A stretch of 64,000 nucleotides of DNA from Nitrospirota bacterium. GTDB lineage: Bacteria > Nitrospirota > JACRHJ01. Position 1 is the first letter of the stretch. Every line of letters starts with the position of its first letter. Below are positions 1 to 40,124 of this stretch, one piece after another. The stretch spans positions 160,001-224,000 of the forward strand of contig CAVTDB010000003.1 of the NCBI GenBank assembly GCA_963733375.1. Reading direction: 5' to 3'. The position numbers and the translations under genes are program-made. The notes under the pieces were generated by a model that worked only from the letters and a program-made list of their open reading frames with translations, ran no database searches and was not told the origin of the DNA.

Positions 1-63
1 TCAAGAATGCACGCCTATCAACATCTGAGCAGCATCTTCACGGCTTCACGCATTGTCATTGCC

Positions 64-432
64 CTATTCTTTCATGACCGGCAATCCGAGCTCGGCAAGG
101 CGCTTCTCCTCGCCATCGGCCCAATAACTCTTAGTGTTGGGGTCGTACAAGAGGTTTATGTCTTTCATTATCGGCGGTATTGGGCCTGTGTTTTTTGCAA
201 GTCTGAAGAGACGCTCCCTGCCCGGCTTTGGAGATCTACTCCTGTAGCCGACTAGGGTAATATATCCTGCAGTTTTGAGCGTGCCCAAATAGTGGGTCAG
301 ATTCTCGACCTCGGATTCTGAAAGCCTTGCAATGTCCCGAATAGCGAATGGGCCTCTAATGATCCTCATCACTTGCCAGGCGCGTTCACGCGCGGTATTT
401 CTAACCCGCTTGTTTTTGGTAGTGCCTTTCAC
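64..432 (-). CDS. Winged-HTH-like protein of Mu-like element A, downstream of the ATPase
   Basis: 122 aa; AWQVMRI...F.IRDIARLS...YLGTLKTAGYI...RLFRLAKNTGPIPP pattern typical of the gene after MuB in transposable phages; start overlaps the ATPase stop. Confidence 0.65.
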   Translation of the reverse strand: MKGTTKNKRVRNTARERAWQVMRIIRGPFAIRDIARLSESEVENLTHYLGTLKTAGYITLVGYRSRSPKPGRERLFRLAKNTGPIPPIMKDINLLYDPNTKSYWADGEEKRLAELGLPVMKE

Positions 433-1133
433 TTCTTTGCCCGCCAGTCCAGGTCTTTGATGTGGGAAGCATCTATCTGCTTCAGGTTGTTTCGCCTGGC
501 GAGGACCTCTAGGTGGTTGATTATTATCTTCAGGGAGCGGAAACAGCCTGACGATGCTTTTGCCATGGCATCAGAGGCTTCTTCTGTCATGCTTACCTCG
601 CATAGCTCTTTGGCAGCTTTCATTATGTCCTCGTTATCCAGAGGCTGGAACTTGTTTATCTGACTTATGCGCGAGAAGAAGTGCGGGTGGCGCATCAGCT
701 TCTTGTCTACGGACCCCATACCGATTAGAAGGATCGGGGTACCGCATTCGTCGTGAAGGTCACGTAAGGATTCCAGAACCCTTGAGTCATGGCAGCAGAA
801 GTCAGCCTCGTCGACAATCAGCATGACGTTATTTCCTATGAGCAGTTCTACCGCCTGACCGAATAAGTTTGAAAACCTGTAATATGGCTCGGCTCCAAGG
901 GCATTGACGATCATCTCGAAAAACCACCTATGAGAGATTGCGGCCCTTGCCCGGACGTATACGGCATTTGAGCCTTTGCGTCCGACGAACCATGTGCAGG
1001 TCTCTGTCTTGCCGAGGCCGGGGTCAGAGTAGATTAGTCCGAAGCCGGGGACTCCATTGCCGCGCTCTTTCAGGTTGTCGATCATCTCGACGGACCTCAT
1101 GACGTTCTTAGTCTTGACAAACACGTTGTGCAT
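429..1133 (-). CDS. MuB-like AAA+ transposition ATPase (element A)
   Basis: Walker A-like SDPGLGKT, Walker B LIVDEAD, LRDLHD, FSRI; start moved to ATG at 1133 behind an AAGGAGG RBS. Confidence 0.9.
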   Translation of the reverse strand: MHNVFVKTKNVMRSVEMIDNLKERGNGVPGFGLIYSDPGLGKTETCTWFVGRKGSNAVYVRARAAISHRWFFEMIVNALGAEPYYRFSNLFGQAVELLIGNNVMLIVDEADFCCHDSRVLESLRDLHDECGTPILLIGMGSVDKKLMRHPHFFSRISQINKFQPLDNEDIMKAAKELCEVSMTEEASDAMAKASSGCFRSLKIIINHLEVLARRNNLKQIDASHIKDLDWRAKK

Positions 1134-1155
1134 GATGCACCTCCTTGTTAAATGG

Positions 1156-1178
1156 AAAAGGCCCCAAGAGGGGCCTTT
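1156..1178 (-). terminator. Hairpin between transposase and ATPase genes
   Basis: AAAAGGCCCC-AAGA-GGGGCCTTT; T-run follows on the minus strand. Confidence 0.55.
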
Positions 1179-1180
1179 CA

Positions 1181-3181
1181 TCAGACATACGAGGCGAGCC
1201 TTGCCTCATATTCGGTTAGCCAGCTTCTTTCGTCAGGGCTTAAGTCCTGCCTGCTTTTGAGTGCCAGATATTTGTCGTAGTCTGATTTGTATAGGCCATT
1301 GCTTTTTGTTTTTTTACTTCTTACTATTCCGTCTGCAACCGTCATATGACTGGAGGCAAGCTTTGCCTCCAGTGCCTCGACGTGTTCCGCTATCCTGGGA
1401 ACTGTGGGCACAATCTCATGCCAGGGCAGCACCGCATCCTTGGAGGCGGCCTTGGCCATTTTAACGACCTTTAGAGTCTGGCGCTTAAGGGAGCGTTTCC
1501 TGCGGATGCCTTCCTTCACCGCGTCCATAGTCACCGGGTTGCCGGTAAGCTTTGCCATCGAGTGGACCGCCTCTACCAGCTTAGCTGCGCCCAGGTATTC
1601 GCCACGTGTTGTGTAAACCAAAATCTGAGTGAGGTCGAAGAAGCTGTAGCGTATGCGGACTTTGTCTCGTAAACCGTAAAGGGCCTCGTGGAAGTACTCG
1701 TTGCCGAGGAACCTGATGCCGTTCCTGCCGATGGACGCCGTCTCAACGGATAGCATAAGGTAATCAAGCTCACGTGCATTTATTCCATTACCACGTCCTG
1801 CATTAAGGACCTCGCCCGGTGTGTGCCCATCGAGGCCGCCGTGTGGCTGTGTGCGGTAATATTCCCGCCACTTGCCTATCATGGCCATAGTCTCCGGTAT
1901 TGTGGGTACCCAGTCGTTATGCAGGCTCTTGAGGAATTTTTCATTCCGTTTCATGTAGCCGGGTTTATCCTCTATGGAAGCGCCAGTAAACGAGGGCATT
2001 AGCCTCTCAAACGAATCGGAGAACGTCCCGAAGAAGCGCTCAATCGGTTTGCTCTGCGCGTTATATGGCCAGGCAAAGGACGTAATAATGCCGAGCCTCG
2101 CAAACATCCCGTAGAAGCCGCACTCCTCAAGGCTCAACTCGCTTGTAAATACCTTCGCCTTGAACGCCTTGCCATTGTCGAGCAGGGCTGCCTTCGGAAA
2201 TTTGCCCAGCTCAAGGACTGCATTACGGAGCGCTCCAGCAACGGCCTGGATGTTCTCCTCGACCATAATCTCATAACCTAACAAGTCACGGCTGGCCCAG
2301 TCGTAGAAACCAACGAGTACCGCACGGCAAGGTTTTCCGGTGTACGGGTTTATCACCTGAAAATTAAGCCTGTGGCCGTCGGCGACCAGAACGTCGCCGA
2401 CATCAAGAAGGGATGAATCACGTTTCAGGAACGGGAGCACCTTGTCGTTTAGCGCCTTCTCACCTTCACGGAGCGCAATCCACAGGTCGTAATGGCGCTT
2501 CTTGAAGTTATCGACAAACCGGCGAAGGGTCATGCCTGATGAATGCGAGGGGAGGCCACGGCGTTCCAGAATATACTTTGTCAGTTTTATTGCCGTCTCG
2601 ACCTTGACCTGGTTCTGATGCAGAAGCTGCGTAAGGAGCAGGTTGGCCTCGTCTTCGGTGACCTTCGACCTCTCACCGCGATTATTGGTGGGTCCTGGGG
2701 CCAGGACACGGTAGTCGCTGTCCCCGTCCTTGTATGCCTTCTCCCACCGGTATAGCGTCCCGCGCGAGATGGTGCCCAAAACCTTGAATATCTCCGGAAG
2801 CAGATGGCCGGTATTGTATGAGAGCAGGAAACAGCCCAAAGCGTCTCCTACACTACACGATGCGATAGCGATTTTCTTGTCCTTGTGCCAGGCACCAAGC
2901 AGGTCGGCACGAGCAAGTGCCGATTTTTCGGTCCGTGCGGGCAGGTGCCTTTTATCGGCTGCACATATATTGGAAGATCGAGTCTGGTCCGTTTTACACT
3001 TAAGGTAGTTGTCTTGAACTTCAGGTGGGAGGGCGGAGAGAGGGATCAGGTACTTCCAGCCCGATGTGCCACGAGGGACTTTCTCGGCTGGCATTTTTCC
3101 CAGGCTGATGAGCCTCTGGACCGACCTGACCGTTATTCCCAGGAGGTCCGCTACCTCGGTAATCTCAAGTCTTGATTCCAT
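1181..3181 (-). CDS. MuA-like DDE transposase (element A)
   Basis: 666 aa; N-terminal HTH, VADGH (D), LLDNGKAF (D), SKPIERFF (E), Mu transposase C-terminal GIRF...Y...VRIRY. Confidence 0.92.
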   Translation of the reverse strand: MESRLEITEVADLLGITVRSVQRLISLGKMPAEKVPRGTSGWKYLIPLSALPPEVQDNYLKCKTDQTRSSNICAADKRHLPARTEKSALARADLLGAWHKDKKIAIASCSVGDALGCFLLSYNTGHLLPEIFKVLGTISRGTLYRWEKAYKDGDSDYRVLAPGPTNNRGERSKVTEDEANLLLTQLLHQNQVKVETAIKLTKYILERRGLPSHSSGMTLRRFVDNFKKRHYDLWIALREGEKALNDKVLPFLKRDSSLLDVGDVLVADGHRLNFQVINPYTGKPCRAVLVGFYDWASRDLLGYEIMVEENIQAVAGALRNAVLELGKFPKAALLDNGKAFKAKVFTSELSLEECGFYGMFARLGIITSFAWPYNAQSKPIERFFGTFSDSFERLMPSFTGASIEDKPGYMKRNEKFLKSLHNDWVPTIPETMAMIGKWREYYRTQPHGGLDGHTPGEVLNAGRGNGINARELDYLMLSVETASIGRNGIRFLGNEYFHEALYGLRDKVRIRYSFFDLTQILVYTTRGEYLGAAKLVEAVHSMAKLTGNPVTMDAVKEGIRRKRSLKRQTLKVVKMAKAASKDAVLPWHEIVPTVPRIAEHVEALEAKLASSHMTVADGIVRSKKTKSNGLYKSDYDKYLALKSRQDLSPDERSWLTEYEARLASYV

Positions 3182-3269
3182 GCGGCATTAAAATCTCCTA
3201 ACCCTTTGCCAATACTGCCGTTAAGTCGGACACACACTACCTCTGTGCCGGGGACATTGCAAGTGGATC

Positions 3270-3390
3270 TTGCGACAAGCGGAGACTACTTAATTAGTAA
3301 AAAGTCCTTATTTAAAGGTAGTTAGCTAAGCGACCTTTTGTGTCGCGACAGATGTCGCGATAATGTCGCAACATGGCTGAATATTGCGAC
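3270..3390. repeat. Cluster of TGTCGC(G/A)A repeats including the palindrome TGTCGCGACA
   Basis: Copies at 3341, 3353 and 3364; inverted TTGCGAC at 3270 and 3384; upstream of the transposase. Confidence 0.6.
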
Positions 3391-3565
3391 GCAGGGTTTT
3401 AAAGGCTAATCGGCAAAAGGCAAAAAAAATAAATAGCTTAGCGAGTTATGAGGACAGACAAAATCTCAAACCGAATGGCAGGAACTGGCCTGAACTGGCC
3501 GGTCAATCTCACTTTAAAAACTGCCTAATATGGCCCGTCTAACTCTTCCGATTTTCCTGAGTTTC

Positions 3566-3670
3566 AGTAAAGAAACTGTAAAGTTTTGTAGGGTTTCTGT
3601 AAAGTAATTGTAAAGTTTAATCCCACCTAATCCCTTTAAATCCCGCTACTTCCCACAATCTCCCCTCCTA
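3566..3670. repeat. Helically phased TGTAAAG and TCCC repeats near the end of element A
   Basis: TGTAAAG-like at ~10-11 bp spacing (3577, 3587, 3598, 3609); TCCC at 3621, 3631, 3641, 3651, 3661. Confidence 0.8.
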
Positions 3671-3722
3671 TGTCAAGTTATAGTGGCGTAAACGCTTTAG
3701 TTTCGGGGCATGTCTGAAATGA

Positions 3723-3800
3723 ATTGCTGCAATTTTGCTGCAGTTGCCGATTCTGGCAAAAAAAAGGACTCACGGAAGTCCGTAAGTCCTTGATTTAAAA
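3723..3800 (-). repeat. Diverged copy of the region downstream of tRNA-Val (arm-type repeats plus terminator)
   Basis: ATTGCTGCAATTTTGCTGCA...GGCAAAAAAAAGGACTCACGGAAGTCCGTAAGTCCTTGATTT is nearly identical to 39973-40049. Confidence 0.9.
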
Positions 3801-3845
3801 TGGTAGGCGATGGGGGGTTCGAACCCTCGACCCCTGCCGTGTGAA
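3801..3845 (-). repeat. att site: 45-bp exact duplicate of the tRNA-Val 3' end
   Basis: TGGTAGGCGATGGGGGGTTCGAACCCTCGACCCCTGCCGTGTGAA identical to 40050-40094; identity stops in the anticodon loop. Confidence 0.95.
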
Positions 3846-3942
3846 TTTCATTTAGGGAAACTTGCTAAGTGGGCTGCTGGTCTGGGAAATCGGCTATCCC
3901 ACTGGAATACATATGCTTTCATTTCCTTCCGATATTTACAAT

Positions 3943-3993
3943 GTTTCCATATTTTCCATATAGTCGGTAGAATTCTGCTACATTTTTGCTACA
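3943..3993. repeat. Putative integrase arm-type and accessory binding repeats
   Basis: TTTCCATA x2 (3943-3960); TGCTACATTTTTGCTACA (3976-3993) matches TGCTACAATTTTGCTACA at 39975-39992. Confidence 0.65.
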
Positions 3994-4167
3994 GTATGAA
4001 CACTGCTTTGCAATTCCAGCAAATGCTATAAACAAAAGAGCGGTTTTTAGGCCCCTCCCTTGCTGACGATTATCAGTTGTTTTGTCTCTTTCTCTTTGCA
4101 CTATTACTCGAACTGCCTCTCAGTGTCTGTTCTGGTAATCCATTTGCCGTCGCCGCCGAAACGTTTG

Positions 4168-12568: not shown

Positions 12569-12985
12569 TCATTTTCCACCTTTAATCATAGTTACGGTAA
12601 AATAAATAAACAGCAAACCTAACATTAAATTAAGCAGGGCGAAAATAATCCCGCTATAAGGAACCACAGAACCGGATACCAATATTCGAGTCCCGTCATA
12701 AATGAAATATCCGCCCGAGAAAAACATAAGAAATCCACTTAGACCAATATAAAGCAGAAAAAACCATTTTGCTGTTTTGTTATTTTTATAGAACAAGAAT
12801 GCCAATAAACTTAACAGAAAAAATTGGCCCAAAGCGACATATACAAGGTAGGACCTGTAGTCGTGTTTCCCTAAATAATTATTAAAAGCGCTTATAACTC
12901 TCACTAAATAATATGACAATACTACGCAGATGATTACTAATTTGTTTCTAAACAACTCGCGTATTATTAACATTGGTTTCCTCAT
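12569..12985 (-). CDS. Putative immunity protein (about 4 TM)
   Basis: Small hydrophobic AT-rich ORF whose ATG overlaps the Rhs stop codon. Confidence 0.6.
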   Translation of the reverse strand: MRKPMLIIRELFRNKLVIICVVLSYYLVRVISAFNNYLGKHDYRSYLVYVALGQFFLLSLLAFLFYKNNKTAKWFFLLYIGLSGFLMFFSGGYFIYDGTRILVSGSVVPYSGIIFALLNLMLGLLFIYFTVTMIKGGK

Positions 12986-26094: not shown

Positions 26095-26853
26095 ATGCAA
26101 AGCAAAAAAAAGAAAAAAGTTGTGGCGTATTGCAGGGTATCAACTTTAGAGCAGAAGAAAAAAGGGCATGGGATAGACATCCAGATTAGGGACGCTACTT
26201 TATTTGCAGAGAGGCATGGTTTATTGATTGAGAAATTCTACAGAGATGAGGGCGAGAGCGGCGTAAAGGAAGAGCGGAAGGCTTTAAAGCTATTGATGCG
26301 GGCTTGTAGGAATAACAGGATTGAGACGATTATCCTGCCGTCGCTCGACCGGCTCTCAAGGGAGGTCAGGATCGCCGAGAACATCTTTCATGAGCTTAAA
26401 AACCTGGGAGTGAAGGTTCTGATAGCTGACATGCCCTACTATAACGGAGAGCGCAAGGACATCCTGATTCGGCAGATTTTAGAGGCGATCGCTGAAGAAA
26501 ACAGAAGAGACATCATCGAACGGCTCTGGAAAGGACGGCAGGAAAGGACGAGGAAGGGCCTCTTCCCAGGCGGAAATCTGCCCTATGGCTATGTCCGAAA
26601 GAATAAGAAAATTTTAGTCCACCCTCACGAGGCCGATATTGTGAATCAAATTTATGCCTCGGCTTCTCACGGACTCTCAGGCGGGGCCATAGCGGATCGT
26701 TTAAATCAGTTTGGATACAGAAGAAGAAACGGCAAACCATGGACTCAGCGGCAGGTATGTCGAATACTGCACCACGTACGGATTTATCAAGGAGGATTAG
26801 TGCACTATGGAGAGGTTTTTGGAAGAATTAATTCCGCGGCTATTTTAGTTTAG
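26095..26853 (+). CDS. Serine recombinase (catalytic plus recombinase domain, short form)
   Basis: YCRVST..Q, SG..R, LDRLSR, PYGY, IADRLN..G...R.GKPW. Confidence 0.9.
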   Translation: MQSKKKKKVVAYCRVSTLEQKKKGHGIDIQIRDATLFAERHGLLIEKFYRDEGESGVKEERKALKLLMRACRNNRIETIILPSLDRLSREVRIAENIFHELKNLGVKVLIADMPYYNGERKDILIRQILEAIAEENRRDIIERLWKGRQERTRKGLFPGGNLPYGYVRKNKKILVHPHEADIVNQIYASASHGLSGGAIADRLNQFGYRRRNGKPWTQRQVCRILHHVRIYQGGLVHYGEVFGRINSAAILV

Positions 26854-27178: not shown

Positions 27179-27248
27179 TGTAGCGCACCAAAATCTGTGT
27201 CAGTAAAGCCACATTATTTGTCAGTGTGATAGCCGAGATATTTGTCAG
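27179..27248 (+). repeat. End of element C with three transposase-binding-like TGTCAG sites
   Basis: TGTCAG at 27198, 27219 and 27243 (the latter two as TATTTGTCAG); the same 10-mer is inverted at 34791-34800. Confidence 0.8.
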
Positions 27249-27372
27249 AAATACTTCTCAAAGCTAACACCAAATTCTCAAATCATTTGGGAAATAATAT
27301 CACAAGGCGGGGCTTTAAAAAAGGTTTTAAAGGGGCCGAAAAGCCTCCTTTAAAACCTTTTTTAAACGGGGT

Positions 27373-28431
27373 TTATTCTACTCTTTTGCTGTATTTCTTG
27401 AAACTTTCAGCCGATATTCCGAAGCCCTTATTAACTTCCTGTTGTGTTGATCCGGCGATCAGGTTGGACTCAGGCAAGCGGCTCGCGCCGAACTCCCTGA
27501 GGGACACCACCACCGGCGCGACGGCGATAAAAGACTTTAACGCCTCTAAATCCTTCCCGGCCAGGTCGTCAGCCCAGGGACGCATAGCGGGCGTTATTTT
27601 ACCGGCCTGCATAGCCTCCTGTATGACGTTTTCAGTGTCCCGCACAACTATCTCTCTCCTTAGCTGTTCAAGTTCGCCCTGGGCCTCCTGTGCGTTCTCT
27701 TTATGCGCCTGTATTGTAGACGGAGGCCCGTTCTTGTCGATGCACTTTTTCCATGCGGCCTCTATCTTGTCCATGATTTCCTTTTGCTGCTCAGGAGTAT
27801 AAGCGGCGGCGTCTTCCTGGCGGTTGATGGAATCCCAAGCCGCCCGCACCCGCTCCGGGTCCAATTTGCCGCCCTTCTTTAACGGGTATCTGGGCATTCT
27901 GTCCGACTGATACCCCATATCAGCGTATCCGGCCTCTTTGTGCGTCCCGTACTCGCCTTTTGGGGGAGTATCATCAACACCCTCTTTGTTGACGACGGGG
28001 ATCATGCCGTCAATCGCGGGCGCATTTGTTAAGGCGGCGTTCACGAATTCAATAACCCGGCCTGTAGCCTTTTTTACGAAAACGACCGGAGAGAGATAAC
28101 GGTATTCGCGGTTTTTAAGATACTCCCGCGCCTTCTCGGTCCATTCCACGGTAGCCCAAATGCCGCCTTCCTTGCCGTCGCCCCTATCTTCAAGCCCCTT
28201 TATCCAACCCGCAGCCGGGGCCTGTGTCCCCGCTAAGGTTTGGTGTTCATAGTCAATCACCGTGTCATTTTGAAGCGCCGAATATTTAGCAAGAACCTCT
28301 TTCCTTGATTCGGCGTCCACCAGCATCTCAGGCTTCCCTTTCGGAGAGATTTTACCGCCCGGAAGAACCTGTATAAAGGTCGGAATCCCCTGTAAATCCG
28401 CACCAACTGAAAATGCTACTTTCTCCTTCAC
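27373..28431 (-). CDS. Mu gpI-like prohead protease/scaffold
   Basis: VIDYEHQTL, AAGWI, VEWT..A...L...EYRYLSPV, AALTNAPAIDGM, GKITPAMRPWA. Confidence 0.9.
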   Translation of the reverse strand: MKEKVAFSVGADLQGIPTFIQVLPGGKISPKGKPEMLVDAESRKEVLAKYSALQNDTVIDYEHQTLAGTQAPAAGWIKGLEDRGDGKEGGIWATVEWTEKAREYLKNREYRYLSPVVFVKKATGRVIEFVNAALTNAPAIDGMIPVVNKEGVDDTPPKGEYGTHKEAGYADMGYQSDRMPRYPLKKGGKLDPERVRAAWDSINRQEDAAAYTPEQQKEIMDKIEAAWKKCIDKNGPPSTIQAHKENAQEAQGELEQLRREIVVRDTENVIQEAMQAGKITPAMRPWADDLAGKDLEALKSFIAVAPVVVSLREFGASRLPESNLIAGSTQQEVNKGFGISAESFKKYSKRVE

Positions 28432-28447
28432 TTAAACCTCCTATTCA

Positions 28448-28999
28448 TCACACCCCCTTCAACAAAAAGTCTTCAAGCTCTTCACCAATCTCCCGCCAGT
28501 CCTCGTCCTGGACAACCAGGAAGGGCCTGGCGGGGATGGTTACCTTTTTGCCGCGCCCAGCCTTGCCGCCGAAGTTCTGAATCGCGGCGTATTTTTTATC
28601 CGACCCGACCACAATACCGCCGTCACTTGCCCTAACAACAATATCATCTGAGAGTTGCCCCGACTTAATGAGGATTTTGCGCCTCTTGCGTATCTCTTCG
28701 GGGCTCATGCCTTTCTGATAGCCGCCGCTCTTCTTTAGGACGCCGCCTTGGCCGTACTTATTTTTCCCCGCGTACAGCGACGCTACTGAAAGTTCTTTCC
28801 ACTTCTCGTTGCCGCCTTTCGCGCTGCCCGGCTCCGAGTACCGGCCCCCGACCTCGAAGTTTTTTATGACGGAGGTCCTGACCGTCTCGCCCATTTTCTT
28901 AAAAGCGGGCAGGAGCTTGCCCGTGCGGCGTCCAATTTCGAGGAGTTTTTTAATTCCCGTATCGTCTATTTCGACCTTTAACGGCTCAAATCCCGACAT
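28448..28999 (-). CDS. Mu gpG-like virion morphogenesis protein
   Basis: KILIKSGQL, VGSDKKYAAIQNFGG, IPARPFL. Confidence 0.88.
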   Translation of the reverse strand: MSGFEPLKVEIDDTGIKKLLEIGRRTGKLLPAFKKMGETVRTSVIKNFEVGGRYSEPGSAKGGNEKWKELSVASLYAGKNKYGQGGVLKKSGGYQKGMSPEEIRKRRKILIKSGQLSDDIVVRASDGGIVVGSDKKYAAIQNFGGKAGRGKKVTIPARPFLVVQDEDWREIGEELEDFLLKGV

Positions 29000-29063
29000 G
29001 ATCTCCTCTCCCTCTGTAAAAATTCCATTTTTAAGTGCCCCTTAAACGCTGGTGCTGCCCTCT

Positions 29064-29101
29064 CTCCCCCGGAGGGCTACATTCGTAGCCCTCCGGGGGA
29101 G
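29064..29101. terminator. 17-bp perfect hairpin after the capsid gene
   Basis: CTCCCCCGGAGGGCTAC-ATTC-GTAGCCCTCCGGGGGAG; no clear T tail, so possibly an mRNA stabiliser. Confidence 0.55.
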
Positions 29102-29136
29102 TCGGCGCAACGGGCGAGAAGGGTCCCCGGTGCGGC

Positions 29137-30027
29137 CTATTGAGTGCCGTCGCTGCCGTATGCTAACTGCCAAAGGCCATAGCCCGCGTTATCGCGGCTG
29201 TCCACGCCGAACTTGTACTCTTTCTTCATAAACACGGAATCTTCATCCGGGCGGTTGATCATTGTCACCACCGGCGCTTTGCGCTGCTGGAATACGAGCG
29301 CCTTAACCGCCTTCTTGCTATCTAAGAGATACCAGGCGGTCGGACTGGCGGACAGGCCGGGAACCACCAAAAGTTCGGCGCTGCCCTTCCATTGATTTGA
29401 TGTTGCGTCGATCAAGTCGTTATGGAGGAGAATGCGGCCAACCTCCTCAAGTTGCGGCGGCACGGCGAGAAGATCGGGCACGATGTTTAATATCTTTCCC
29501 TGGTCATCCTTCAAGGACATCATCTGCGACCTGGCAAGCGCATAACTGTTTGAGGCGAGGATGCCGTGGCCGAGATTCGATTGTATCGCGCCATCGAGGC
29601 CATAAGGGTGTGCAGCGGTGAAAAAGGGTAGGCCGTCGTAACATAAGCCTGTGAAACCGCCAAGGAGAAGCTCATATAAAAGCTCGTCCGGGTGGTATTT
29701 CGCGGCCTCTGCCATTGAAGCCACAAGCGGCTTATATACGCCATACCTGTCGTCTTCAATGTCATTCCTGTCGATCGCGACGGTTGATTCCCAGTCCCGG
29801 TTCTTTATGCTGTAGTCATACAGCTTCATGTTAGCCAGGACCCTTTCACCTATCCATTCCCGCATCCTGGGGAACCTGCCGAGCCATGCGTAAATTTCTT
29901 CCCGCGTGGCAGAGGGAACCGTCGTGGCGAGCTTATTTAAGACGCTGGGCGTCGTCTCAAACACCTCATTAAAGATCGTTGCGACACTTTGGTAAACGAT
30001 CTGCAAATTCGCCTGATTGATAATCAT
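29137..30027 (-). CDS. Mu gpT-like major capsid protein
   Basis: YAWLGRFPRMREWIGER, IKNRDWESTVAIDRNDIEDD, CYDGLPFF, FGVDSRDNAGYGLWQLAYGS. Confidence 0.93.
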   Translation of the reverse strand: MIINQANLQIVYQSVATIFNEVFETTPSVLNKLATTVPSATREEIYAWLGRFPRMREWIGERVLANMKLYDYSIKNRDWESTVAIDRNDIEDDRYGVYKPLVASMAEAAKYHPDELLYELLLGGFTGLCYDGLPFFTAAHPYGLDGAIQSNLGHGILASNSYALARSQMMSLKDDQGKILNIVPDLLAVPPQLEEVGRILLHNDLIDATSNQWKGSAELLVVPGLSASPTAWYLLDSKKAVKALVFQQRKAPVVTMINRPDEDSVFMKKEYKFGVDSRDNAGYGLWQLAYGSDGTQ

Positions 30028-31130: not shown

Positions 31131-31802
31131 CTAAACAAGCACCAAATCCTCAGCAGCGGCCTTTATAAGCTCCGGGGTAGTTTCCTTAATTCCGTTTACT
31201 TCTTTAAGGCCCGCTATATTTTTTAATAGCTGAGACAAAATGCGAAGATTTCCCCTTGAAGCTTTGTGTAAAAGCTTTGTCGTTTCGGAATCCAGTTCCG
31301 GTAAAGCTAACCGCATTTCCGAAAGGTCCAGGTTAGAAAAATCAGCCCGGAACTGTAACCTTGAGCTTAATTGGTCCAGGCGCTGTTTTCTTAACCGGCC
31401 CGTGAATTTCCTGGACCCGATGAAAAGGACCGGCGCGCCGCTTGCGTCGTGAAGGCCGCGAATCAGTTCCAAAACGTCTGTGCTTAGAAGGTCCACTTCA
31501 TCAACAATGGTTATACCGTGCTGCCATTTGTAATGCTTTAAGGCTTGTTCATACCGGGCCGAAAGTGTCCAGTCCCGGTATTGAACCATCTTGTCCAGGA
31601 GCGCATTTAAATACTCGCTCGGTGTCATTAAGTTATGCCCGGAGACGAAATAACACCGTGCATGGCCTTGTTCTGCATAAAGATTTGCAGCTGTGGTTTT
31701 GCCTGTCCCGGCAGAACCTATAACCAGCGCCATTGATTTGTTATCAATGACCCTCGCCGCGATCTCGCGGAATTTCCTTGTGTACGTCGTCTCCAAAACC
31801 AT
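31131..31802 (-). CDS. MuB-like AAA+ ATPase (element C)
   Basis: GSAGTGKT, IVDEVD, IRGLHD, LSSR, SRGNLRIL. Confidence 0.9.
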   Translation of the reverse strand: MVLETTYTRKFREIAARVIDNKSMALVIGSAGTGKTTAANLYAEQGHARCYFVSGHNLMTPSEYLNALLDKMVQYRDWTLSARYEQALKHYKWQHGITIVDEVDLLSTDVLELIRGLHDASGAPVLFIGSRKFTGRLRKQRLDQLSSRLQFRADFSNLDLSEMRLALPELDSETTKLLHKASRGNLRILSQLLKNIAGLKEVNGIKETTPELIKAAAEDLVLV

Positions 31803-31822: not shown

Positions 31823-33713
31823 TTAAGAGTTTGCCGCCTTAGCCTCAGCGGCTTCCTTGTCTGCTACAAATCTATAAATATTGTTTTTCTTAACTTGCGG
31901 CGCGCGATCTTCCTCGTGTTTTGCTTTTACTGCCTTACGTTCTTTTTTCAGATGCATAGGGACGGTTACAAATCCAGGGACTATAACCGGATCGGAAGCC
32001 CGTTTTATAGCCTCGTCTCTCACGTCCTCAATGATCGCGCCTTTATCAACCAGGGCGATATAATCTTCAATCTGCTTTTTCTGATTTTTCTTCTCTCTTG
32101 CTATCGCCCTGTAATCCTCTTCCGTGATGTGATAGCCCATTAATTCGCGGTCCTTTGCATGGCAGATATATTCACCCCTAAAGAAGCAAATAATTTCGCC
32201 CTTGTTTTTATATACCGGCCTGATTTCAACGCTCTGCCCGATGAACTCAAAAAGCGCCTCATGCTGATATAAAATATTGTCGTATTGAATTCCTTGAGTA
32301 GTAACCTTCCTGGGCACTCTTGAAGCGGCCACCACTTCAAGGACTTCGGGCGGCGCTGTTACTTTCGCTACCTTGGAAAATTCACAATGCCTTTCAAGGC
32401 ATGATTTTTTAAGCGGCCTTCTAAATTCCTTGTGGTACTTGTCTTTTATGTAGCTGTAAATGATCCGTTCCAGGTCAGCCATTGTTAAAAGCGGCTTTAT
32501 ATCGTCCGGGCGATTTTCGGGGTTTCTGCCGCAATAGCCCGGCAGTTTTGAGATACACTGTCCTTCAAAGGTCCTAAAAAATCTTTCAATCGGTTTCGAT
32601 GATCCTCTATATGGAATAGCATGAGTTTTATCAACTCCCATGTCATTAAGAAGCGCTTCAAAATCGGCGCTTAAGTAGTCCTTGCCGTTATCGACATAGA
32701 CGGATGCCGGAACTCCAAACATTGGATAATCCTTATCCGGCTTGGGCGCGACTCCATTCATAAAGCTCTGCATAATGGTTAAAGAGTTGCCCTGAAAGGT
32801 CAGACTATAACCGACAATGCTCATATCACATAGGTCCATCCATGCGGATAGCCAGGGCCTTACTGCCTTGCCATTTTTGTTCTTTATAAAGAGGTCCAGC
32901 TTATGATGATCGCCGCACCAAATATCATTTATGAAGTCCGGTTTCTTACGCGCGGTTTTTACTTCAAATTTATCCGTAAAGGTTTTTTTGGTTTCGCGCT
33001 CATGGGCTATTACAGCCGGGGGATACTTCCGATGATCCTCCGGGCGGCGGTATAAGACAATTTCTCGCCCCGCGCATCCGCAATCGGTAGCGTCTTTTCA
33101 TAAACTTCCAAAATGGAATATTTAGGCTTGCTTAAATAAAATTTCTGGAGCGTCTTTTGAACTTCATCGGATACCGCCCGGATAATGCCTTTGTCTTTGC
33201 GGTCCTTACGGCAGAGGGCTTTATAGTCTTTTTCTTTCCAGGCGCGCACCCACCTGAAAACGGTGCGGGGCGACACCTCGTTAGCAGTCTGCGATTTTCC
33301 CGGCCAAAACGGTTCTTATCCGTGGCGTCCGAAAAAAGGAGCGGCTGTATAATTTCTATCTTTTCGCTTACCTCGTTTTTTTCCTCATTGCTTAAATAAA
33401 GCCATTGGCTATCAGTCGGCTTTTGTTCAGGTGCGGGGGACGTGGGCTTTATTGGAAGGTTTGCATTTGCGAGATATTTAGCGGGCAGGTTATACAGGCT
33501 TTCCAATAAAATCAGCGTCTGCCTTTTTCCATTGCGGGACGTGCGGGGGGCCGGGCGAGCGACAAGCGAATATTTTTTAGGAAGACGTTTAGCGGTCCTC
33601 AAGGGGGTTTTGAGGATGTTCGCCATTTCTCCTATGGTTATATACTTATCGTCCACGCCGGGCCCCTTGTGATTAAAAATCCAGCAGGTGTTTTTTATCG
33701 CAGAGGTCCTCAA
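31823..33713 (-). CDS. MuA-like DDE transposase (element C), split by two frameshifts (~33015, ~33290)
   Basis: Consecutive frames give an N-terminal HTH, SPRTVFRWVRAW HTH, WCGDHHKLD...RPWLSAWMD, VDNGKDY, SKPIERFF; one added C in the run at ~33020 rejoins the frames. Confidence 0.85.
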
Positions 33714-34080: not shown

Positions 34081-34123
34081 AATATTTCATTAAACGAAAT
34101 ATGTCAAATAAAATATTTCATTA
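34081..34123. promoter_or_regulatory. Divergent promoter/operator region of element C
   Basis: AATATTTCATTA twice; ATATTTC-N7-GAAATAT inverted repeat; TTGACA on the minus strand (34101-34106). Confidence 0.55.
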
Positions 34124-34146
34124 TTTACAACTTCATTTAAATTCTA

Positions 34147-34545
34147 ATGCCGCCTTCTTTTAAAGTTGAATTAGGTCAAAGACTTAAAAAAGTGCGCCAA
34201 TCTATGGAAATGACGCAAAAACGATTTTGTCTTCATTTTGGGCCTACTGTTGAAAGTCCAAGCCTGTTAAGCCGGTATGAATCCGGCGATATTAACCCGC
34301 CGATATATCTTTTTAAGCTCCTTGCGGATCAAACGATTAATCTTAATTGGCTGTTTACAGGCGAGGGTCCTATGTACCTCGACGGTGATAAGCCTTTATC
34401 GGTTCCCGACTCTGCTACACGGCGAGAACTTGACGCAATATGGAAAACACATCGGATTTTTAAAGAGTGTGGGGCCGATAAGGTTAAGGCTTTAACGGTC
34501 TTCTTAAATTCCCTTGATCCTGGCCGGGATAATAAAGAGAAGTAA
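34147..34545 (+). CDS. XRE/CI-like repressor (element C)
   Basis: RLKKVRQ...MTQKRF...LLSRYESG..NP...INLNWLFTGEGPM; divergent from the early operon. Confidence 0.85.
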   Translation: MPPSFKVELGQRLKKVRQSMEMTQKRFCLHFGPTVESPSLLSRYESGDINPPIYLFKLLADQTINLNWLFTGEGPMYLDGDKPLSVPDSATRRELDAIWKTHRIFKECGADKVKALTVFLNSLDPGRDNKEK

Positions 34546-34594
34546 ACATACTTTTTTAGAAATCGTAACAAACAGGGGCCACAATTTAAAAAGC

Positions 34595-34824
34595 AAAAGT
34601 GGCCCTGGGATAATTCCTAATAATCGGCACCTAAGAGCCGAAACTCCTTTAAATGTTTAGTTTTTTAGATTTTGGCCCTTGGATTCAAGGTTTTTTAATA
34701 AAAGTGGCCCTGGGATAATTCCTAACAAAGCTTATCCTATTGTAAAATTTAGGCTATCCCGTTTTGAGAGTTTACATAACATTTCCGTTACTGACAAATA
34801 AACTGGCTATTTGGCCCTTGGATT
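34595..34824. repeat. TGGCCCT(G/T)GGAT repeats near the end of element C
   Basis: 26-bp exact repeat at 34595-34620 and 34700-34725; TTTGGCCCTTGGATT at 34671 and 34810. Confidence 0.85.
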
Positions 34825-35019
34825 TGGGCGGCTTTCCGATGCCTGGGGCGATAAAATCAGGGGTTTTAAAGGTTTTTTAAAGGAGGGTTAATCTATTGCA
34901 TTATAAGGGATTTAATTTCTCTTTAAATCTCGTTTAAGAGGTTCCATTTCCCACGTAATCCCGCGTTTTCTCGTTTTTTCCCGCGATTTTAATATTGACA
35001 TATAAAGTGACTACCTACA

Positions 35020-35595
35020 GCCGTGGAGTACCTTGCAGGCGTCTTTCGTCAGCTCCACCTCGCATAGCTCCTTGACCGCCGTGGCCACGTCGTCTTCGTC
35101 CAGCGGCCGGAACTTGTATATCTGGCTTATCCGGGAGAAGAAGTGGGGGTGCCTCTTCAGCATCCGGTCCACCTTGCCCATCCCGATAAGGACGATGGGC
35201 GTGCCGCATTCGTCGTGCAGGTCCCTGAGCGATTCCAGCACCCGCGTATCACGGCAGCAGAAATCTATCTCGTCCACCAGGAGCATGGTTTCCTGTTTCA
35301 TCAGTTTCTCTTTCGCCTGCTCGAAGAGCTTCGCGTAGTTGTATTTGGGCTCCTCGCCCAGTTCCGCGACTATCAGCTCCATCAGCCAGCGCGCGCTTAT
35401 GTTGGCCTTGGCGCGGATGTATTTCGCGTTAGACCCCTTGCGGCCGACGAGCCACGAGCAGGTCTCCGTCTTGCCGAGCCCCGGGTCGCTATAGACAAGC
35501 CCCAGCCCCGGCACGCTTGGCTTCTTATCGCGCAGGTTCTTCACCAGCTCCAGCGTCCGCATCACGTTTTTTGTCTTTACAATGGCATTGCGCAT
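35020..35595 (-). pseudogene. MuB-like ATPase of element B, C-terminally truncated by element C
   Basis: Clear paralogue of 429-1133 (SDPGLGKTETC, LRDLHDECGTP, RHPHFFSRISQI); similarity ends at the element C end. Confidence 0.88.
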
Positions 35596-35670
35596 CTGGT
35601 ATTGTTTCCTCCATTCGTCGTTCGTACTGCTCGGTTTGTTAGGCCCTCGTTGCCGCGGGGGCCATGCTTT

Positions 35671-37794
35671 TTACGCGTACTGAAGTTCCTTTTCGTATCG
35701 CTCCAACCACCCCCTTTCATCCTTCGTCATGGTTGCCTTGCCCTTCAAGTCCTCGTATTTTTCGTAGTCCGACTGGTAGAGCTTGCGGGATAGCTTCGGC
35801 GGCACCGCCTCGGTAGAGGGGCCTGCTGTTTCGCTGGCAGGCATATAAGCTTGTCGGCAAGGGAAGTAGCCGCGCACCGGCGTTCCGTCTCTAACGTGGC
35901 AACGTCCGCTATCAGCCTCGGCATCTCGCGTGTCAGCCTCGCCTGTGACCAGGGCGTCCGGGACTCCGTACCCGGCCGCAAGATATGCCCGCGCGGTTTT
36001 AATCGTCTGTTTTCGGAGGTGGGCCTTGTTCTTGTTCGCCTGGCTGACCGCCTCCATATCCACCTTGCTTCCGGTGAGAGCCGCCATCGCGGGCACGGCC
36101 GTCTGGAGGCTTGCGGAGCAGAGATAGCCGCCGTTCGGAAGATAGACATGCACCTGTTCTACATCGAAGACCGAATACCGGATTTCCGCCCGGCCAGCAT
36201 ATCCGTAGAGGGCGTCGTGCCAGTAGTTCAGGCCGCGCCAGCGTATGCCCTCGCGGGTCACCTTGGTCACCTCGGCTGACATCATCAGGTAGTCGAGTTG
36301 ACGGGCGTCGATGCCGGAGCCGCGTCCAGCGGCGAAGACCTCGGCGGGAATCCGGCCCTGTAGTCCCTTGTGCGGCTGGGAGTGGTGGAACTTGAGCCAC
36401 CGGCCTATCATCTCCACGGCCTGCGGGATGCTGGGGACGAAGTCCCCGTGGGCCTGTTTATGGAATTTCTCGTTGCGCATCATCCAGGTGGGCTTGTCTT
36501 CTATGGAGGCTCCGGTAAAAGACTCGATCATCCGTTCGCACTGGTCCCCGAACGTGCCCCAGAAGCGCTCTATTATCTTCGCCTGGGCGTTGTACGGCCT
36601 GGAGAAAACGGGCTTGATGCCGAGCCTGCCGAAGAGGCCGACTATGCCGCATTGCTCCAGGTCCACATCCGACGTGAAGAACTTCGCCCTGAATGATTTG
36701 CCGTTGTCCTGATAGGCTATGCGCGGGAATTTGCCGAGCGTAAGGATCGCGTTCCGCAGCGCCCCCGCGATTACCTGTGTGGTCTCCTCTATCATGATCT
36801 CGTAGCCGCAGAGGTAACGCGAGGCCCAGTCTATGTAGCCTATCAAGGTCGCCCGGCAGGGCTTGCCGGTCCAGGGATTAATCACGAGGAAGTTCAGCCT
36901 GTGCCCGTCCGTTATGAGCACGTCCCCGACCTCCAGCATCGAGCTATCGCGCTTGATATACGGCGATACCTTGTCGTTTAGGGCCTTCTCGCCCTCGCGC
37001 ATCAGCACCCACAGGTCCCGCTGGGTATCCATGAATTCTTTGATATGGCGCTCTAACGTTTTCGGGGACGAGGGGGAAGGGATTCCCTTCTCTTCGAGGA
37101 CGTACTTCATAAGCCTTATAGCCGTCTGCACCGGGCGTTTCTGGGGGGTAAGCAGGATATTCAGGAGAGTCGTGGACTCGTGGGCCATGACCGAACGGGA
37201 GCCCTTGCTTGTGCCCCACTCCGGCGCCAGGGCGCGGTAGTCGTTGCCCGACTCGATGTATGTCTTTTCCCAGCGGTAAAGGGTGCCCTGGCTGACCGTG
37301 TCCAGCTCCTTGAAAATCTCTTCCAGCAGGACTCCGGAATTGTAGGCCGCGAGGAAACGGCTGAGCGCGATCTTCGTCTTGCGTTCCTTCTTGGCGTCGT
37401 CTTTCGCCTTGTGCCAGGCATGCACGAGGTCCGCTCTGGCAAGGGCCTTTTTCTGGGCCCAGGGCGGGAGGATTCCTGAAGCAACACCGGGAATCATAAC
37501 GCCCCTCCCAGCCCCACTCCCTGCGGCGGGAGGGGGCGTGGCGATGGAGGAGCGGCCCAAGGCCGGAGGAGCCACCGACTGGCCTTGCAATTTAAGATAT
37601 TCAGCCTGGGCGGAAGGGGGAAGGGAGGATAGCGGGACGAGATATTTCATGCCGCCCCGGCCGCCGCGTGAGGGGACTTCTTTGGCGGCGAGTTTCCCGG
37701 AAATTATTTGACGCCGGAGGGTCCGTTCCGTTGTCTGTAAACCTATCGTTCCTAAAAGCTCTGCTACTTGTTTTACTTCAAGTAGTGCCTGCAT
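35671..37794 (-). CDS. MuA-like DDE transposase (element B)
   Basis: ITDGHRLNF, QDNGKSF, KIIERFW; shares many blocks with 1181-3181; ATG at 37794 with an RBS. Confidence 0.9.
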   Translation of the reverse strand: MQALLEVKQVAELLGTIGLQTTERTLRRQIISGKLAAKEVPSRGGRGGMKYLVPLSSLPPSAQAEYLKLQGQSVAPPALGRSSIATPPPAAGSGAGRGVMIPGVASGILPPWAQKKALARADLVHAWHKAKDDAKKERKTKIALSRFLAAYNSGVLLEEIFKELDTVSQGTLYRWEKTYIESGNDYRALAPEWGTSKGSRSVMAHESTTLLNILLTPQKRPVQTAIRLMKYVLEEKGIPSPSSPKTLERHIKEFMDTQRDLWVLMREGEKALNDKVSPYIKRDSSMLEVGDVLITDGHRLNFLVINPWTGKPCRATLIGYIDWASRYLCGYEIMIEETTQVIAGALRNAILTLGKFPRIAYQDNGKSFRAKFFTSDVDLEQCGIVGLFGRLGIKPVFSRPYNAQAKIIERFWGTFGDQCERMIESFTGASIEDKPTWMMRNEKFHKQAHGDFVPSIPQAVEMIGRWLKFHHSQPHKGLQGRIPAEVFAAGRGSGIDARQLDYLMMSAEVTKVTREGIRWRGLNYWHDALYGYAGRAEIRYSVFDVEQVHVYLPNGGYLCSASLQTAVPAMAALTGSKVDMEAVSQANKNKAHLRKQTIKTARAYLAAGYGVPDALVTGEADTRDAEADSGRCHVRDGTPVRGYFPCRQAYMPASETAGPSTEAVPPKLSRKLYQSDYEKYEDLKGKATMTKDERGWLERYEKELQYA

Positions 37795-37861
37795 ATCCAC
37801 CCTCGGTTTTAGCCGTTGACATTCGCGTTGGGACGTTTTAAAATCCAGTTCAATCTTGAAC

Positions 37862-38146
37862 TCAGGCGGCGCAGTCGTCCGCGCGGTAACGGAGCGGCCA
37901 GAGGGTTTCCTTCGGCACGCCCAGTATGGCGGCGACGTAGGTCTGTACCCGCTCCGATTTGTCCCGGTCGTATACGGCGTACTTAACGCCGTTGCAGGAC
38001 ACACCCATTTGGCGGCCTATTTTCGACCAGTTAAGGTTCCTGCGGCGAAGCTCGTGGTAGATGATCCGGCCCCGTTCCTGGCGGTCCGTCTCAAGATTGA
38101 GCTGGCGGAGGAAGAGCTTCATGTGGGATTTTTCTCTTACTGTCAT
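37862..38146 (-). CDS. Ner-like HTH regulator
   Basis: ELRRRNLNWSKIGRQMGVS...VAAILGVPKETLWPLRY. Confidence 0.75.
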   Translation of the reverse strand: MTVREKSHMKLFLRQLNLETDRQERGRIIYHELRRRNLNWSKIGRQMGVSCNGVKYAVYDRDKSERVQTYVAAILGVPKETLWPLRYRADDCAA

Positions 38147-38164
38147 GTCGGGTACTCCTTAACT

Positions 38165-38581: not shown

Positions 38582-38638
38582 CGTGCTCCCTTGTGAATTA
38601 ATTCTCTAATGCGGGTGATGTTGAACTGAAAATACACT

Positions 38639-38672
38639 ATTAATTTATTACTGTCAAGCTAAATAAATTAAT
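38639..38672. promoter_or_regulatory. Operator-like palindrome around a minus-strand TTGACA
   Basis: ATTAATTTATT-ACTGTCAAGCTA-AATAAATTAAT. Confidence 0.55.
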
Positions 38673-38741
38673 AATTTATCGTCCGCAATGATTTTTGATA
38701 TACTTTGGCGACTTCCCGCCTAACCTATTATTTTATTTAGA

Positions 38742-39203
38742 ATGTTTACTATGTCCGCAAAAGAAAAAACGTCCGCAAAAATGTCCGCAAAAGGGCGCGG
38801 AATGCGGACACGTGTTTCTTTTCCTATGGATGTCGATGAAATCCTTGACCGGATTAAGCGATTTGAGGGTATTACGGAAGACAAAGAGGTGGCTGATAAA
38901 TTATTAATGAAGCCCCAGTCTTTATTTAACGCCAAACTTGCGAGAAGAATTCCCCTTGATATATTAGCTATTTACGCACAGGAAAAGGGTATATTATTCG
39001 AGTGGCTTTTAACCGGCGAAGGCCCTGAGCGGCTGGCCCCACTGGCTTTGAAGGAGGAATACCAGGACATCCGCCTGGCTAATATGATACATCTCGTGCG
39101 GAAAATCTATAAAGAGGGGAAGGCGGCGAAGATCGAGGCGATAGAGTCTCTTTTAAAGGCGCTTAATCCGGAGGAGCCTAAAAGGAGGGGGAAAAAAATA
39201 TGA
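38742..39203 (+). CDS. Phage CI-like repressor (element B); true start possibly 38826
   Basis: ILDRIKRFEGITEDKEVA..L...RRIP...FEWLLTGEG. Confidence 0.8.
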   Translation: MFTMSAKEKTSAKMSAKGRGMRTRVSFPMDVDEILDRIKRFEGITEDKEVADKLLMKPQSLFNAKLARRIPLDILAIYAQEKGILFEWLLTGEGPERLAPLALKEEYQDIRLANMIHLVRKIYKEGKAAKIEAIESLLKALNPEEPKRRGKKI

Positions 39204-39763
39204 TAACTATGACGAGGTTTTTACAATGCGTGTTCGATCCACAGCCGGAGGAAAACCATCTTGCAAGCCGGTACGATGCCTTTATTGAAGAGGCACAACG
39301 GCTTAAAGGGATTATAGACCGTCACATGCAGGCTGCAAGAGATGGTAAGACCATTAAAACTATAGAAAATAACGTCGAAAAAGCGAAAGCAGCGGCCATA
39401 CAACTAATAAAGATTACGCCGCCTGGACATAAAAATAGCGTCTTTGCAAAAATCATAATTTTTACGGTGATAAATTTTAGACATATAACGACTCTTGAGG
39501 AGATTGTTTTTTTCGATGAGGCAAAAAAGGAATTATTTCAAGCGTTTTATGAAGGTAAAATTACTGACGAAATGCCGCGACCGGGCATAGGAAAGCATCC
39601 AGAATTAAAAATTTTACAATATAAGAAAGCGTTGAGATGGACTTTAAAGGCTTTGGATTTTTTCCCTAATAATGAATGTTTTAATGAATATAAGAGCGAT
39701 ATTACGGAATGCATTGACGAATTAAAACCCATAGCGGGAGCGATAAAGAAGGTGAAAAAATAA
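39200..39763 (+). CDS. Hypothetical protein co-transcribed with the repressor
   Basis: 187 aa AT-rich ORF with an ATGA overlap. Confidence 0.6.
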   Translation: MITMTRFLQCVFDPQPEENHLASRYDAFIEEAQRLKGIIDRHMQAARDGKTIKTIENNVEKAKAAAIQLIKITPPGHKNSVFAKIIIFTVINFRHITTLEEIVFFDEAKKELFQAFYEGKITDEMPRPGIGKHPELKILQYKKALRWTLKALDFFPNNECFNEYKSDITECIDELKPIAGAIKKVKK

Positions 39764-40007
39764 GGCGGCCTGTGCCGCCCTCTTACATGCGCCGAGCGCA
39801 CGGTTTAAAATTCTCAAATTGCTTGTCTAAAACTGCCCTTCCGAGCCGTTTATTCTCAAATTGGCTTTTCCCGGCGATTTTCAGAATAGTCCTTTAAATC
39901 CCGTTATTTCCCATGTATTCCCGCCTTTTCCCGGCGTTTTCAGATTACTTGTCTTACTATAGTTGGATGAAAATTGCTACAATTTTGCTACATTGCCCGT
40001 TTTTGGC

Positions 40008-40041
40008 AAAAAAAAGGACTCACGGAAATCCGTAAGTCCTT
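40008..40041 (-). terminator. Terminator downstream of tRNA-Val
   Basis: AAGGACTCACGG-AAAT-CCGTAAGTCCTT preceded by an A-run (T-run on the minus strand). Confidence 0.7.
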
Positions 40042-40049
40042 GATTTTAA

Positions 40050-40124
40050 TGGTAGGCGATGGGGGGTTCGAACCCTCGACCCCTGCCGTGTGAAGGCAGT
40101 GCTCTCCCGCTGAGCTAATCGCCC
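40050..40124 (-). tRNA. tRNA-Val(CAC)
   Basis: Reverse complement GGGCGATTAGCTCAGCGGGAGAGCACTGCCTT-CAC-ACGGCAGGGGTCGAGGGTTCGAACCCCCCATCGCCTACCA; cloverleaf with encoded CCA. Confidence 0.97.

Follow-up and report, generated by a model that had tools for sequence, protein, structure and literature searches.

Bacteriophage Mu has termini of the form 5'-TG...CA-3' and generates a 5-bp target duplication. The transposons Tn5053 and Tn402 reportedly behave as 'res hunters': with their TniA/TniB pair they are said to insert in one orientation in or next to the site of a recombinase, at somewhat variable positions, and to require TniQ as well as a resolvase-bound res site. Here we analyze a window of 64,000 nucleotides (contig C3, positions 160001-224000) from the genome of a Nitrospirota bacterium (termed G000; 2.39 Mb, 26 contigs), in which two Mu-like modules, elements A and B, have their left ends beside copies of the 3' end of a tRNA-Val gene. 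The window also contains a third module, element C. Other systems of interest for this locus are the Tn7-like transposons, which use protein selectors such as TnsD/TniQ or, in Tn6022, TnsF, an inactivated tyrosine recombinase; for CyCAST, Faure et al. 2023 (PMC10293859) give a homing distance of 30-33 nt, and they also mention a conserved gene in an operon with MuB, which they regard as belonging to a phage. In a search of the literature with subscription journals outside its coverage, no description of Mu-like elements homing to tRNA or attachment (att) sites was found.

The window elements share with Mu and Mu-like prophages a DDE transposase with the Mu C-terminal domain and an AAA+ partner, repressor genes read towards the left end (element B) and head genes nearby. 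They differ from Mu in their placement, which is non-random in this genus, while relatives of the same subtype outside the genus look randomly placed. Furthermore, the termini of A and B end in TA instead of CA, and in A, defence cargo is present but phage structural genes are not. In their behaviour, the window elements most closely resemble the Tn5053 'res hunters' and the Tn7-like elements with protein selectors. Like Tn5053 and Tn402, the window elements combine a MuA/MuB-like pair with a single orientation, variable positions and the site of a site-specific recombinase. Here, however, this site is the tRNA/island junction of tyrosine or serine integrases, targeting is deduced from placement, and TniQ was not seen: a Pfam scan of 32 open reading frames (ORFs) in window positions 1-41500, nearly all of at least 100 aa and with smaller ORFs outside the scan, found neither TnsA nor TniQ/TnsD, as a prediction made earlier from the window sequence (below, the original prediction) had noted for TniQ/TnsD. 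A transposase-ATPase core with a DNA-binding selector, tRNA homing sites and defence genes in the cargo are also known from Tn7-like elements, from which the window differs by the missing TnsA, TniQ and TnsD, by a spacing that is not fixed and by its candidate adaptor, a winged-helix protein of 122 aa. Tandem tRNA integrase islands likewise show the tRNA 3' end as a direct repeat, with arm repeats on either side and, in an intact example, an integrase read towards the tRNA, whereas in the window Mu ends have left only 3 and 13 codons (stop included) of the recombinase genes. Finally, a sister subtype of the same MuA family shares the operon position and the one-orientation tRNA adjacency; its third gene encodes a core-binding domain that the third gene in the window lacks.

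The island stack at tRNA-Val and elements A and B

The only tRNA found by ARAGORN in the window is tRNA-Val(cac) at 40050..40124 on the minus strand, which is the live attachment site. Self-comparison of the window revealed that 3722-3845 is 92.8% identical to 39972-40094 over 125 bp. The stretch at 3722-3845 consists of the 3' 45 nt of tRNA-Val, the att core copy (3803..3847, minus strand), and 78 bp downstream of it, which carry a 12-pair terminator hairpin and two TTGCT(A/G)CA repeats with 11-bp spacing. The tRNA-side arm of island 2 (3722..3802, minus strand) contains these two TTGCTGCA repeats at 3724-3731 and 3735-3742 and the terminator hairpin at 3764-3791. Correspondingly, the tRNA-side arm of island 1 (39972..40049, minus strand) contains two TTGCTACA repeats at 39974-39981 and 39985-39992 and the terminator at 40014-40041. 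The far-side arm of island 1 (3848..4071), with two (C/T)TGCTACA repeats at 3975-3993, was recognized by its similarity to C3:125440-125526: window positions 3865-3951 are 96.6% identical to this segment over 87 bp, followed by 80% identity. Two additional att copies lie beyond the window at C3:125341-125436 and C3:118536-118628. Because there are four att copies on the contig, and the island borders carry direct repeats of the tRNA 3' end with conserved arms on both sides, the 81-kb stack is composed of three recombinase-type islands integrated one after another into tRNA-Val: island 1 (C3:163846-200049), island 2 (C3:125437-163802) and island 3 (C3:118629-125340). The window holds the tRNA-proximal part. 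Logan contigs from one public run show the same att junctions at 163.8k and 125.4k.

No intact recombinase gene is present at the tRNA-side arm of the islands in the window. Instead, a Mu module lies at each of these arms. All three modules are on the minus strand according to their Pfam matches. PF09299 is matched by MuA of A, B and C, the rve matches being below the Pfam curated cutoff, and an AAA+ ATPase is encoded directly downstream of MuA (AAA_22 in A, B and C; TniB in A and B; phrog_296 in all three). The closest cultured phage is 28.5% identical.

Element A comprises an intact MuA-like DDE transposase gene (1181..3181, minus strand, 666 aa; Mu-transpos_C, rve, HTH; phrog_310), the gene of a MuB-like AAA+ ATPase (429..1181, minus strand, 250 aa; AAA_22, TniB; phrog_296 'DNA transposition protein') and a third gene for a winged-helix protein of 122 aa (64..432, minus strand), which overlaps the MuB stop by 4 bp. 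The product of the third gene has no Pfam match and belongs to phrog_2030 'transcriptional regulator' (E 2e-21). Copies of the transposase with 89-97% identity are present on contigs C20 and C1 and in two further genomes of the same genus, G001 and G002. The left-end region (3182..3682) terminates with ...TGTCAAGTTATA at 3682, where the homology among A-type copies at different loci ends. This terminus (...TTATA) is 120 bp from the tRNA-Val copy. The same end type is found in C1 copy 2 and G001:C65, and a sister end type is common to C1 copy 1, C20, G002:C2 and G002:C3. Between terminus and arm, a putative tail of a recombinase gene, assigned by its position, is read towards the att copy (3684..3722, plus strand, 12 codons and stop). 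The TGA that closes its open frame occupies the position, relative to the arm repeats, of the integrase stop in G001:C28.

In element B, MuA (35671..38004, minus strand, 777 aa; PF09299, phrog_310) is 48% identical to MuA of A. Its MuB (35011..35595, minus strand, 194 aa; AAA_22, TniB, phrog_296) lacks about 37 C-terminal residues; it is 64% identical to MuB of A, and the alignment stops at A residue 213 of 250. A CI-like repressor gene (38742-39203; Phage_CI_repr) and a gene for 187 aa (together 38742..39763, plus strand) are read towards the left end as in Mu. The match between the window and the tRNA-Val loci G002:C1 and G001:C28 ceases at C3:199961 and 199965, respectively. Thus, the left-end region (39764..39961) ends with ...TGTCTTACTATA at 39961. 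This terminus (...CTATA) shares its end motif with A and is 88 bp from tRNA-Val. It is followed by the last 9 bp (Val-Gly-stop) of a tyrosine integrase gene (39962..39970, plus strand), which match the ...PEKIG* tail of a remnant of 50 codons in G001:C28.

These results bear on several claims of the original prediction. The peptide blocks REGEKALNDKV, DGHRLNF.VINP.TGKPCRA and SFTGASIEDKP are indeed present in MuA of both A and B, and are conserved across the whole family. The motif TGTC-N4-TATAGT is present at 3671-3684 and 39950-39963 as described and represents the terminus itself. Likewise, the ends lie in the same orientation next to tRNA copies, arms and terminator, at corrected distances of 120 bp (A) and 88 bp (B) instead of about 100-130 bp. 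The termini proposed at 3694 and 39973 have to be moved to 3682 and 39961 on the basis of the A-type copies and the sister genomes. Immobilised ends had been suggested as well, which is not supported: copies at several different loci share the TA-ending terminus, so the ends are not clearly inactive. A terminal CA was found in two variants (G001:C28 and C3:132657).

Left-end junctions and recombinase tails in the genus

The survey of junctions covered the three genomes of one genus, G000, G001 and G002, and yielded 11 left-end junctions. Eight are located downstream of tRNA-Val, Met, Leu or Asn genes or att copies, at distances of 88, 120, 190, 234, 239, 397, 424 and 516 bp. One more, a Mu-end remnant, abuts an orphan C-terminal integrase fragment (C3:132664-133140, 158 aa). 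All nine have the same orientation, with the Mu operon running away from the tRNA. At tRNA-Met, two left ends are stacked 234 bp apart. Copies with about 91% DNA identity to A stand beside four different tRNAs and at a single site away from tRNAs. According to an estimate from the tRNA list, about 1% of the genome lies in the zones behind tRNAs, and chance placement of the junctions is excluded. Recurrence at four tRNAs in one orientation (8/11) favours targeting over chance.

The DNA between tRNA and Mu end was inspected for recombinase genes. In G001:C28, the 234 bp between tRNA-Val and the Mu end read towards the tRNA as VGTILGHKDVRMAKRYAHL...PEKIG*. Judged by its sequence, this flank is the C-terminus of a tyrosine integrase (weak PF00589 match; phrog_1). 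The tail at tRNA-Leu in G002:C2 has about 100 codons, of which the open end of 71 codons matches PF00589 (E 3e-5) and phrog_1 (E 4e-10). Two tRNA-Asn flanks in G001 are alike, and one of them weakly matches the serine-integrase family phrog_95 (E 0.003). Hence, Mu ends cut recombinase tails of two classes at 3, 13, about 50, about 100 and 158 codons from the stop. The starting state is shown by an un-hit island of the same kind in G001:C61, where tRNA-Ala is followed by the terminator, two TTGGGCTAA repeats and an intact integrase frame of 353 aa read towards the tRNA. As the left ends remove all but the last codons of the recombinase gene, the Mu modules occupy the integrase position of the islands. 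The junction of B was also found beside an att copy in G001:C27, and at the live tRNA-Val of G001 another Mu end has cut a newer integrase tail. Apparently, there has thus been more than one cycle of island arrival followed by landing of a Mu end in the integrase tail.

Proposed targeting of the tRNA-proximal island edge and alternative explanations

From the recurrent and oriented junctions we infer that the Mu-like elements of this genus may target the tRNA-proximal edge of islands in an oriented, regional manner, a reading to which we give slightly less than an even chance. The usual place of the recombinase gene in the two large islands is against the tRNA-side arm, from where it is read towards the tRNA; in each it was hit by a Mu-type left end, that of B in island 1 and that of A in island 2, from separate lineages. 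The preferred target of transposition would be the 0.1-0.5 kb just behind a tRNA gene or island junction, which the elements would enter in a single orientation. In this process the MuB ATPase would capture the target DNA and the MuB-bound winged-helix product of the third gene would serve as adaptor; either the tRNA gene or the recombinase-bound junction might be the recognised feature. Each hit would kill the recombinase and ground its island. The next island would integrate into the intact tRNA and be hit in turn, so that each of two att copies would end up with a Mu module next to it. Such targeting is consistent with the orientation and the narrow zone, with the recurrence at four tRNAs and two recombinase classes, and with the stacked ends. 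The more specific proposal, that these elements are 'att hunters' steered by the MuB-bound winged-helix adaptor to the recombinase side of tRNA/island junctions, is put forward tentatively.

The proposed role of the third gene is based on its position and on structure prediction. Its family follows MuB in 20 related loci, and among the 19 MuB/third-gene pairs listed 17 overlap at the MuB stop, usually by 4 bp. For MuB of A and the protein of 122 aa, the predicted complex reached a score of 0.83 compared to 0.00 for the best control (18-row alignment each). Among solved complexes 116 of 157 attain this mark, as do 2 of 215 mismatched pairs, counts which are rough because own alignments were used. 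The runs agreed in at least 69% of the contacts, and the partner had a predicted local distance difference test (pLDDT) value of at least 77. The prediction supports the protein of 122 aa as a MuB-bound DNA-binding partner and says nothing on which DNA it reads.

The original prediction had proposed to measure the distance and orientation of related MuA genes relative to tRNAs. Using a profile built from 16 MuA proteins, 80 loci were collected from reference genomes. The 543 kb upstream of MuA contained 42 tRNA or tmRNA genes on the same strand and one on the opposite strand; the 594 kb downstream contained none on the same strand and one on the opposite strand. A same-strand tRNA or tmRNA gene was located within 4 kb upstream in 32 of the 60 informative loci. 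This link depends on the third gene of the operon. In the sister subtype, found mostly in Melainabacteria, the third gene encodes a winged helix plus an integrase core-binding/SAM-like domain, and 26/36 informative loci are linked to a tRNA or tmRNA on the same strand within 4 kb upstream. Where no third gene was detected in the available sequence, 4/8 informative loci are tRNA-linked, and one locus (L035) that matches both third-gene profiles has a tRNA within 4 kb. The third gene of A encodes a winged helix and no core-binding domain; its profile comparison with the core-binding type was weak (probability 12%, E 0.0025) and covered the winged-helix part only.

Several observations weigh against targeting. 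In the winged-helix-only subtype, to which the window elements belong, just 1/15 informative loci is tRNA-linked, and this one is G002 of the same genus. Outside the genus, relatives of this subtype thus lack the tRNA link. A scan of flanks at 16 loci (13 winged-helix-only, L035 and two without a detected third gene) found unrelated genes and no recombinase beside the winged-helix-only loci outside the genus, among 76 ORFs of at least 60 aa, tails below 60 aa being missed. The third-gene family is common in transposable phages (phrog_2030), so the third gene need not be a tRNA selector. Two of the 11 junctions in the genus lie elsewhere: the C20 copy (orthologous to G002:C3) between sigma-54 regulator genes, and element C, whose left end falls within MuB of B at a distance of 5 kb from the tRNA. 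Accordingly, insertion at random loci, named in the original prediction as contrary evidence, partly occurs. With distances of 88-516 bp, the spacing is much less strict than that of Tn7-type targeting. Furthermore, the junctions come from one genus, and some of them may share history.

Right ends weigh in the same direction. The search beyond the window produced the two further att copies, and no right end or target-site duplication: none was detected when the left-end regions of A and B were searched as inverted matches over 115 kb, or when terminal motifs were searched over the three genomes. Within the window the end motif of B has 6 matches compared to 2.8 expected, one of them exact, and none marks a right end. 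An inverted-repeat search of 16 related loci gave AT-rich chance matches only; right-end candidates at loci L077 and L078 were read and are not ends. In addition, the cut recombinase genes lack their 5' parts: PF00239 (Resolvase) has no match in G001 and G002, and G000 contains nothing more than fragments. Because right ends, duplications and recombinase 5' parts are all absent, the events were not simple insertions that stayed intact. Integrase tails also occur beside tRNAs that have no Mu end (tRNA-Ala(ggc) on C25 and tRNA-Val in G002:C1); hence plain decay can leave such tails. Among public sequencing runs, the best contained a share of 0.22 of the words sampled from window positions 39000-41000, none reaching a quarter, and their contigs, where covering, revealed no new junction, empty site or joint.

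An explanation without targeting starts from random insertion. Recombinase knock-outs would have been kept as stabilising useful islands, and deletion anchored at the left end together with decay would have proceeded up to the needed tRNA and terminator. This is the main alternative; we consider it unlikely, although it can explain much. The cut recombinase genes have lost their 5' parts, some tRNAs that have no Mu end retain integrase tails of 20-60 codons, and same-subtype relatives elsewhere look randomly placed; moreover, the left end of C joined to the truncated MuB of B is an example of end-anchored rearrangement. Less well explained are the single orientation of all nine junctions at a tRNA, att copy or recombinase tail and the lack of intermediates, no island junction being found in cargo genes at intermediate distances. 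The junction of A stops 120 bp from an att copy that is non-essential. To bring eight cases within 0.5 kb by undirected steps would presumably need many events per copy.

The original prediction had left the choice between a Mu lineage that targets tRNA or att arms and a hybrid island family with a Mu module in the integrase position. For the former, the eight of 11 junctions at four tRNAs in one orientation speak in favour, whereas the C20 copy, the relatives outside the genus and the missing right ends and duplications do not. The latter is correct insofar as the left ends replace the recombinase gene. As a complete account, with MuA/MuB built into the islands (e.g., for replication), a recombinase provided in trans and arm adjacency by descent, it is improbable. 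Conservation of both arms of islands 1 and 2 (91-97%) and defence cargo rather than phage genes after A would agree with it. However, the Mu ends cut recombinase tails of two classes at different codons, copies of A stand at four tRNAs and one non-tRNA site, and an island with this arm type has an intact integrase but lacks a Mu module. Duplication of a whole att-plus-Mu segment, by which A and B would be one old insertion, was rejected: in spite of the same orientation and the shared arms and tRNA fragment, DNA identity is no more than about 70-75% in the Mu genes (proteins as given above) but 92.8% in the att arms, the junctions differ (13 versus 3 residual codons), and repressor genes are present only in B.

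If targeting is real, it would be a new way of choosing insertion sites in the Mu/Tn7 superfamily, a protein-guided homing without TniQ, TnsD or Cas and a bacterial counterpart of tRNA-directed retroelement insertion. It would also explain why islands lose their integrases, become fixed and stack at one tRNA, and it could be tested with a small gene set (MuA, MuB and the partner of 122 aa). Otherwise, the locus still illustrates clearly how arrays of tRNA islands in small genomes are shaped by transposase-anchored rearrangement and decay.

Element C and additional features

Element C has a MuA gene that is broken into several frames (31823..33713, minus strand), with Mu-transpos_C in a piece of 338 aa and N-terminal HTH pieces in other frames. 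Downstream of it lies the gene of a MuB-like ATPase (31131..31802, minus strand, 223 aa; AAA_22, phrog_296). A repressor-like HTH_3 gene was identified by Pfam and PHROGs at 34147..34545 on the plus strand. The left-end region (34788..35004) ends with ...TTGACATATA at about 35004, and the truncated MuB gene of B stops 6 bp away. Right-side repeats, three TTTGTCAG sites, are located at 27196..27370, inverted relative to 34788-34810, and inverted repeats at 27207-27367 and 34788-34889 suggest the two sides of C. Comparison of the repeats on both sides fixed neither a right terminus nor a target-site duplication. Mu-like head genes at 27373..30027 (minus strand; Pfam, PHROGs) encode protease I, a virion morphogenesis protein and the major head protein gpT. 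Their order on the minus strand is gpT, G-like, protease I, which differs from that of Mu; this remnant is therefore rearranged.

A 5' fragment of a large serine recombinase gene (26095..26853, plus strand, 252 aa; Resolvase, Recombinase; phrog_95 positions 83-319 of 651) points at C. It stops about 0.35 kb before the right-side repeats of C, which would fit a Mu-type insertion into a recombinase gene with a surviving 5' part.

A different third gene occurs in the C20 element of G000 (C20:15893-17452) and at locus L027 (L027:12741-14294). There, a winged-helix N-terminus is fused to a sigma-54 activator (AAA+ and HTH_8) in a protein of 517-519 aa. The C20 element with this fusion is the A-type copy away from tRNAs and is located just downstream of another sigma-54 response-regulator gene.

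Island 2 cargo downstream of element A (C3:142000-156000) looks like a defence island. It encodes an N6 methylase with a type I S subunit, a NACHT protein of 1602 aa, and TIR and SLATT proteins. A repeat of about 165 bp resembling a miniature inverted-repeat transposable element, with terminal inverted repeats (GTTGATCGGCGTGCAATAATGACCCAC...), is present at about eight places in or beside island 2, with a trace on C20. Its sites include window positions 1-29 and C3:159554-160029 as well as C3:132419-132581, 135447-135602, 138861-139021, 141852-142009 and 150073-150221, among others. One copy interrupts the Mu-end remnant adjoining the orphan integrase fragment.

Island 1 encodes very large Ig-domain and beta-helix surface proteins (7146-12303) and an RHS-repeat protein of 1541 aa (12982-17607) with N-terminal Peptidase_C39 and DUF6531, which is followed by an ORF of 140 aa. 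A histidine kinase is split into overlapping frames, with the seven-transmembrane (7TM) part at 24017-24586 and the HisKA/HATPase part at 23011-24069. This split is probably due to a frameshift or an assembly error.

Two further tRNA sites in G000 carry related features. At C25:8008-8331, a terminator and two TTGGGCTAA repeats come after tRNA-Ala(ggc); the tyrosine-integrase tail behind them retains about 60 codons and has no Mu end next to it. At C8:102808-103017, a tRNA-Met att copy with far-side arm repeats adjoins the gene of an archaeal-type S-adenosylmethionine synthetase (PF01941). The chromosomal part of the window (48-60 kb) contains direct and inverted repeats that are 75-94% identical and unrelated to the islands: 48191-48622 and 51374-51505 match 59136-60012, and 57933-57982 matches 59118-59170.

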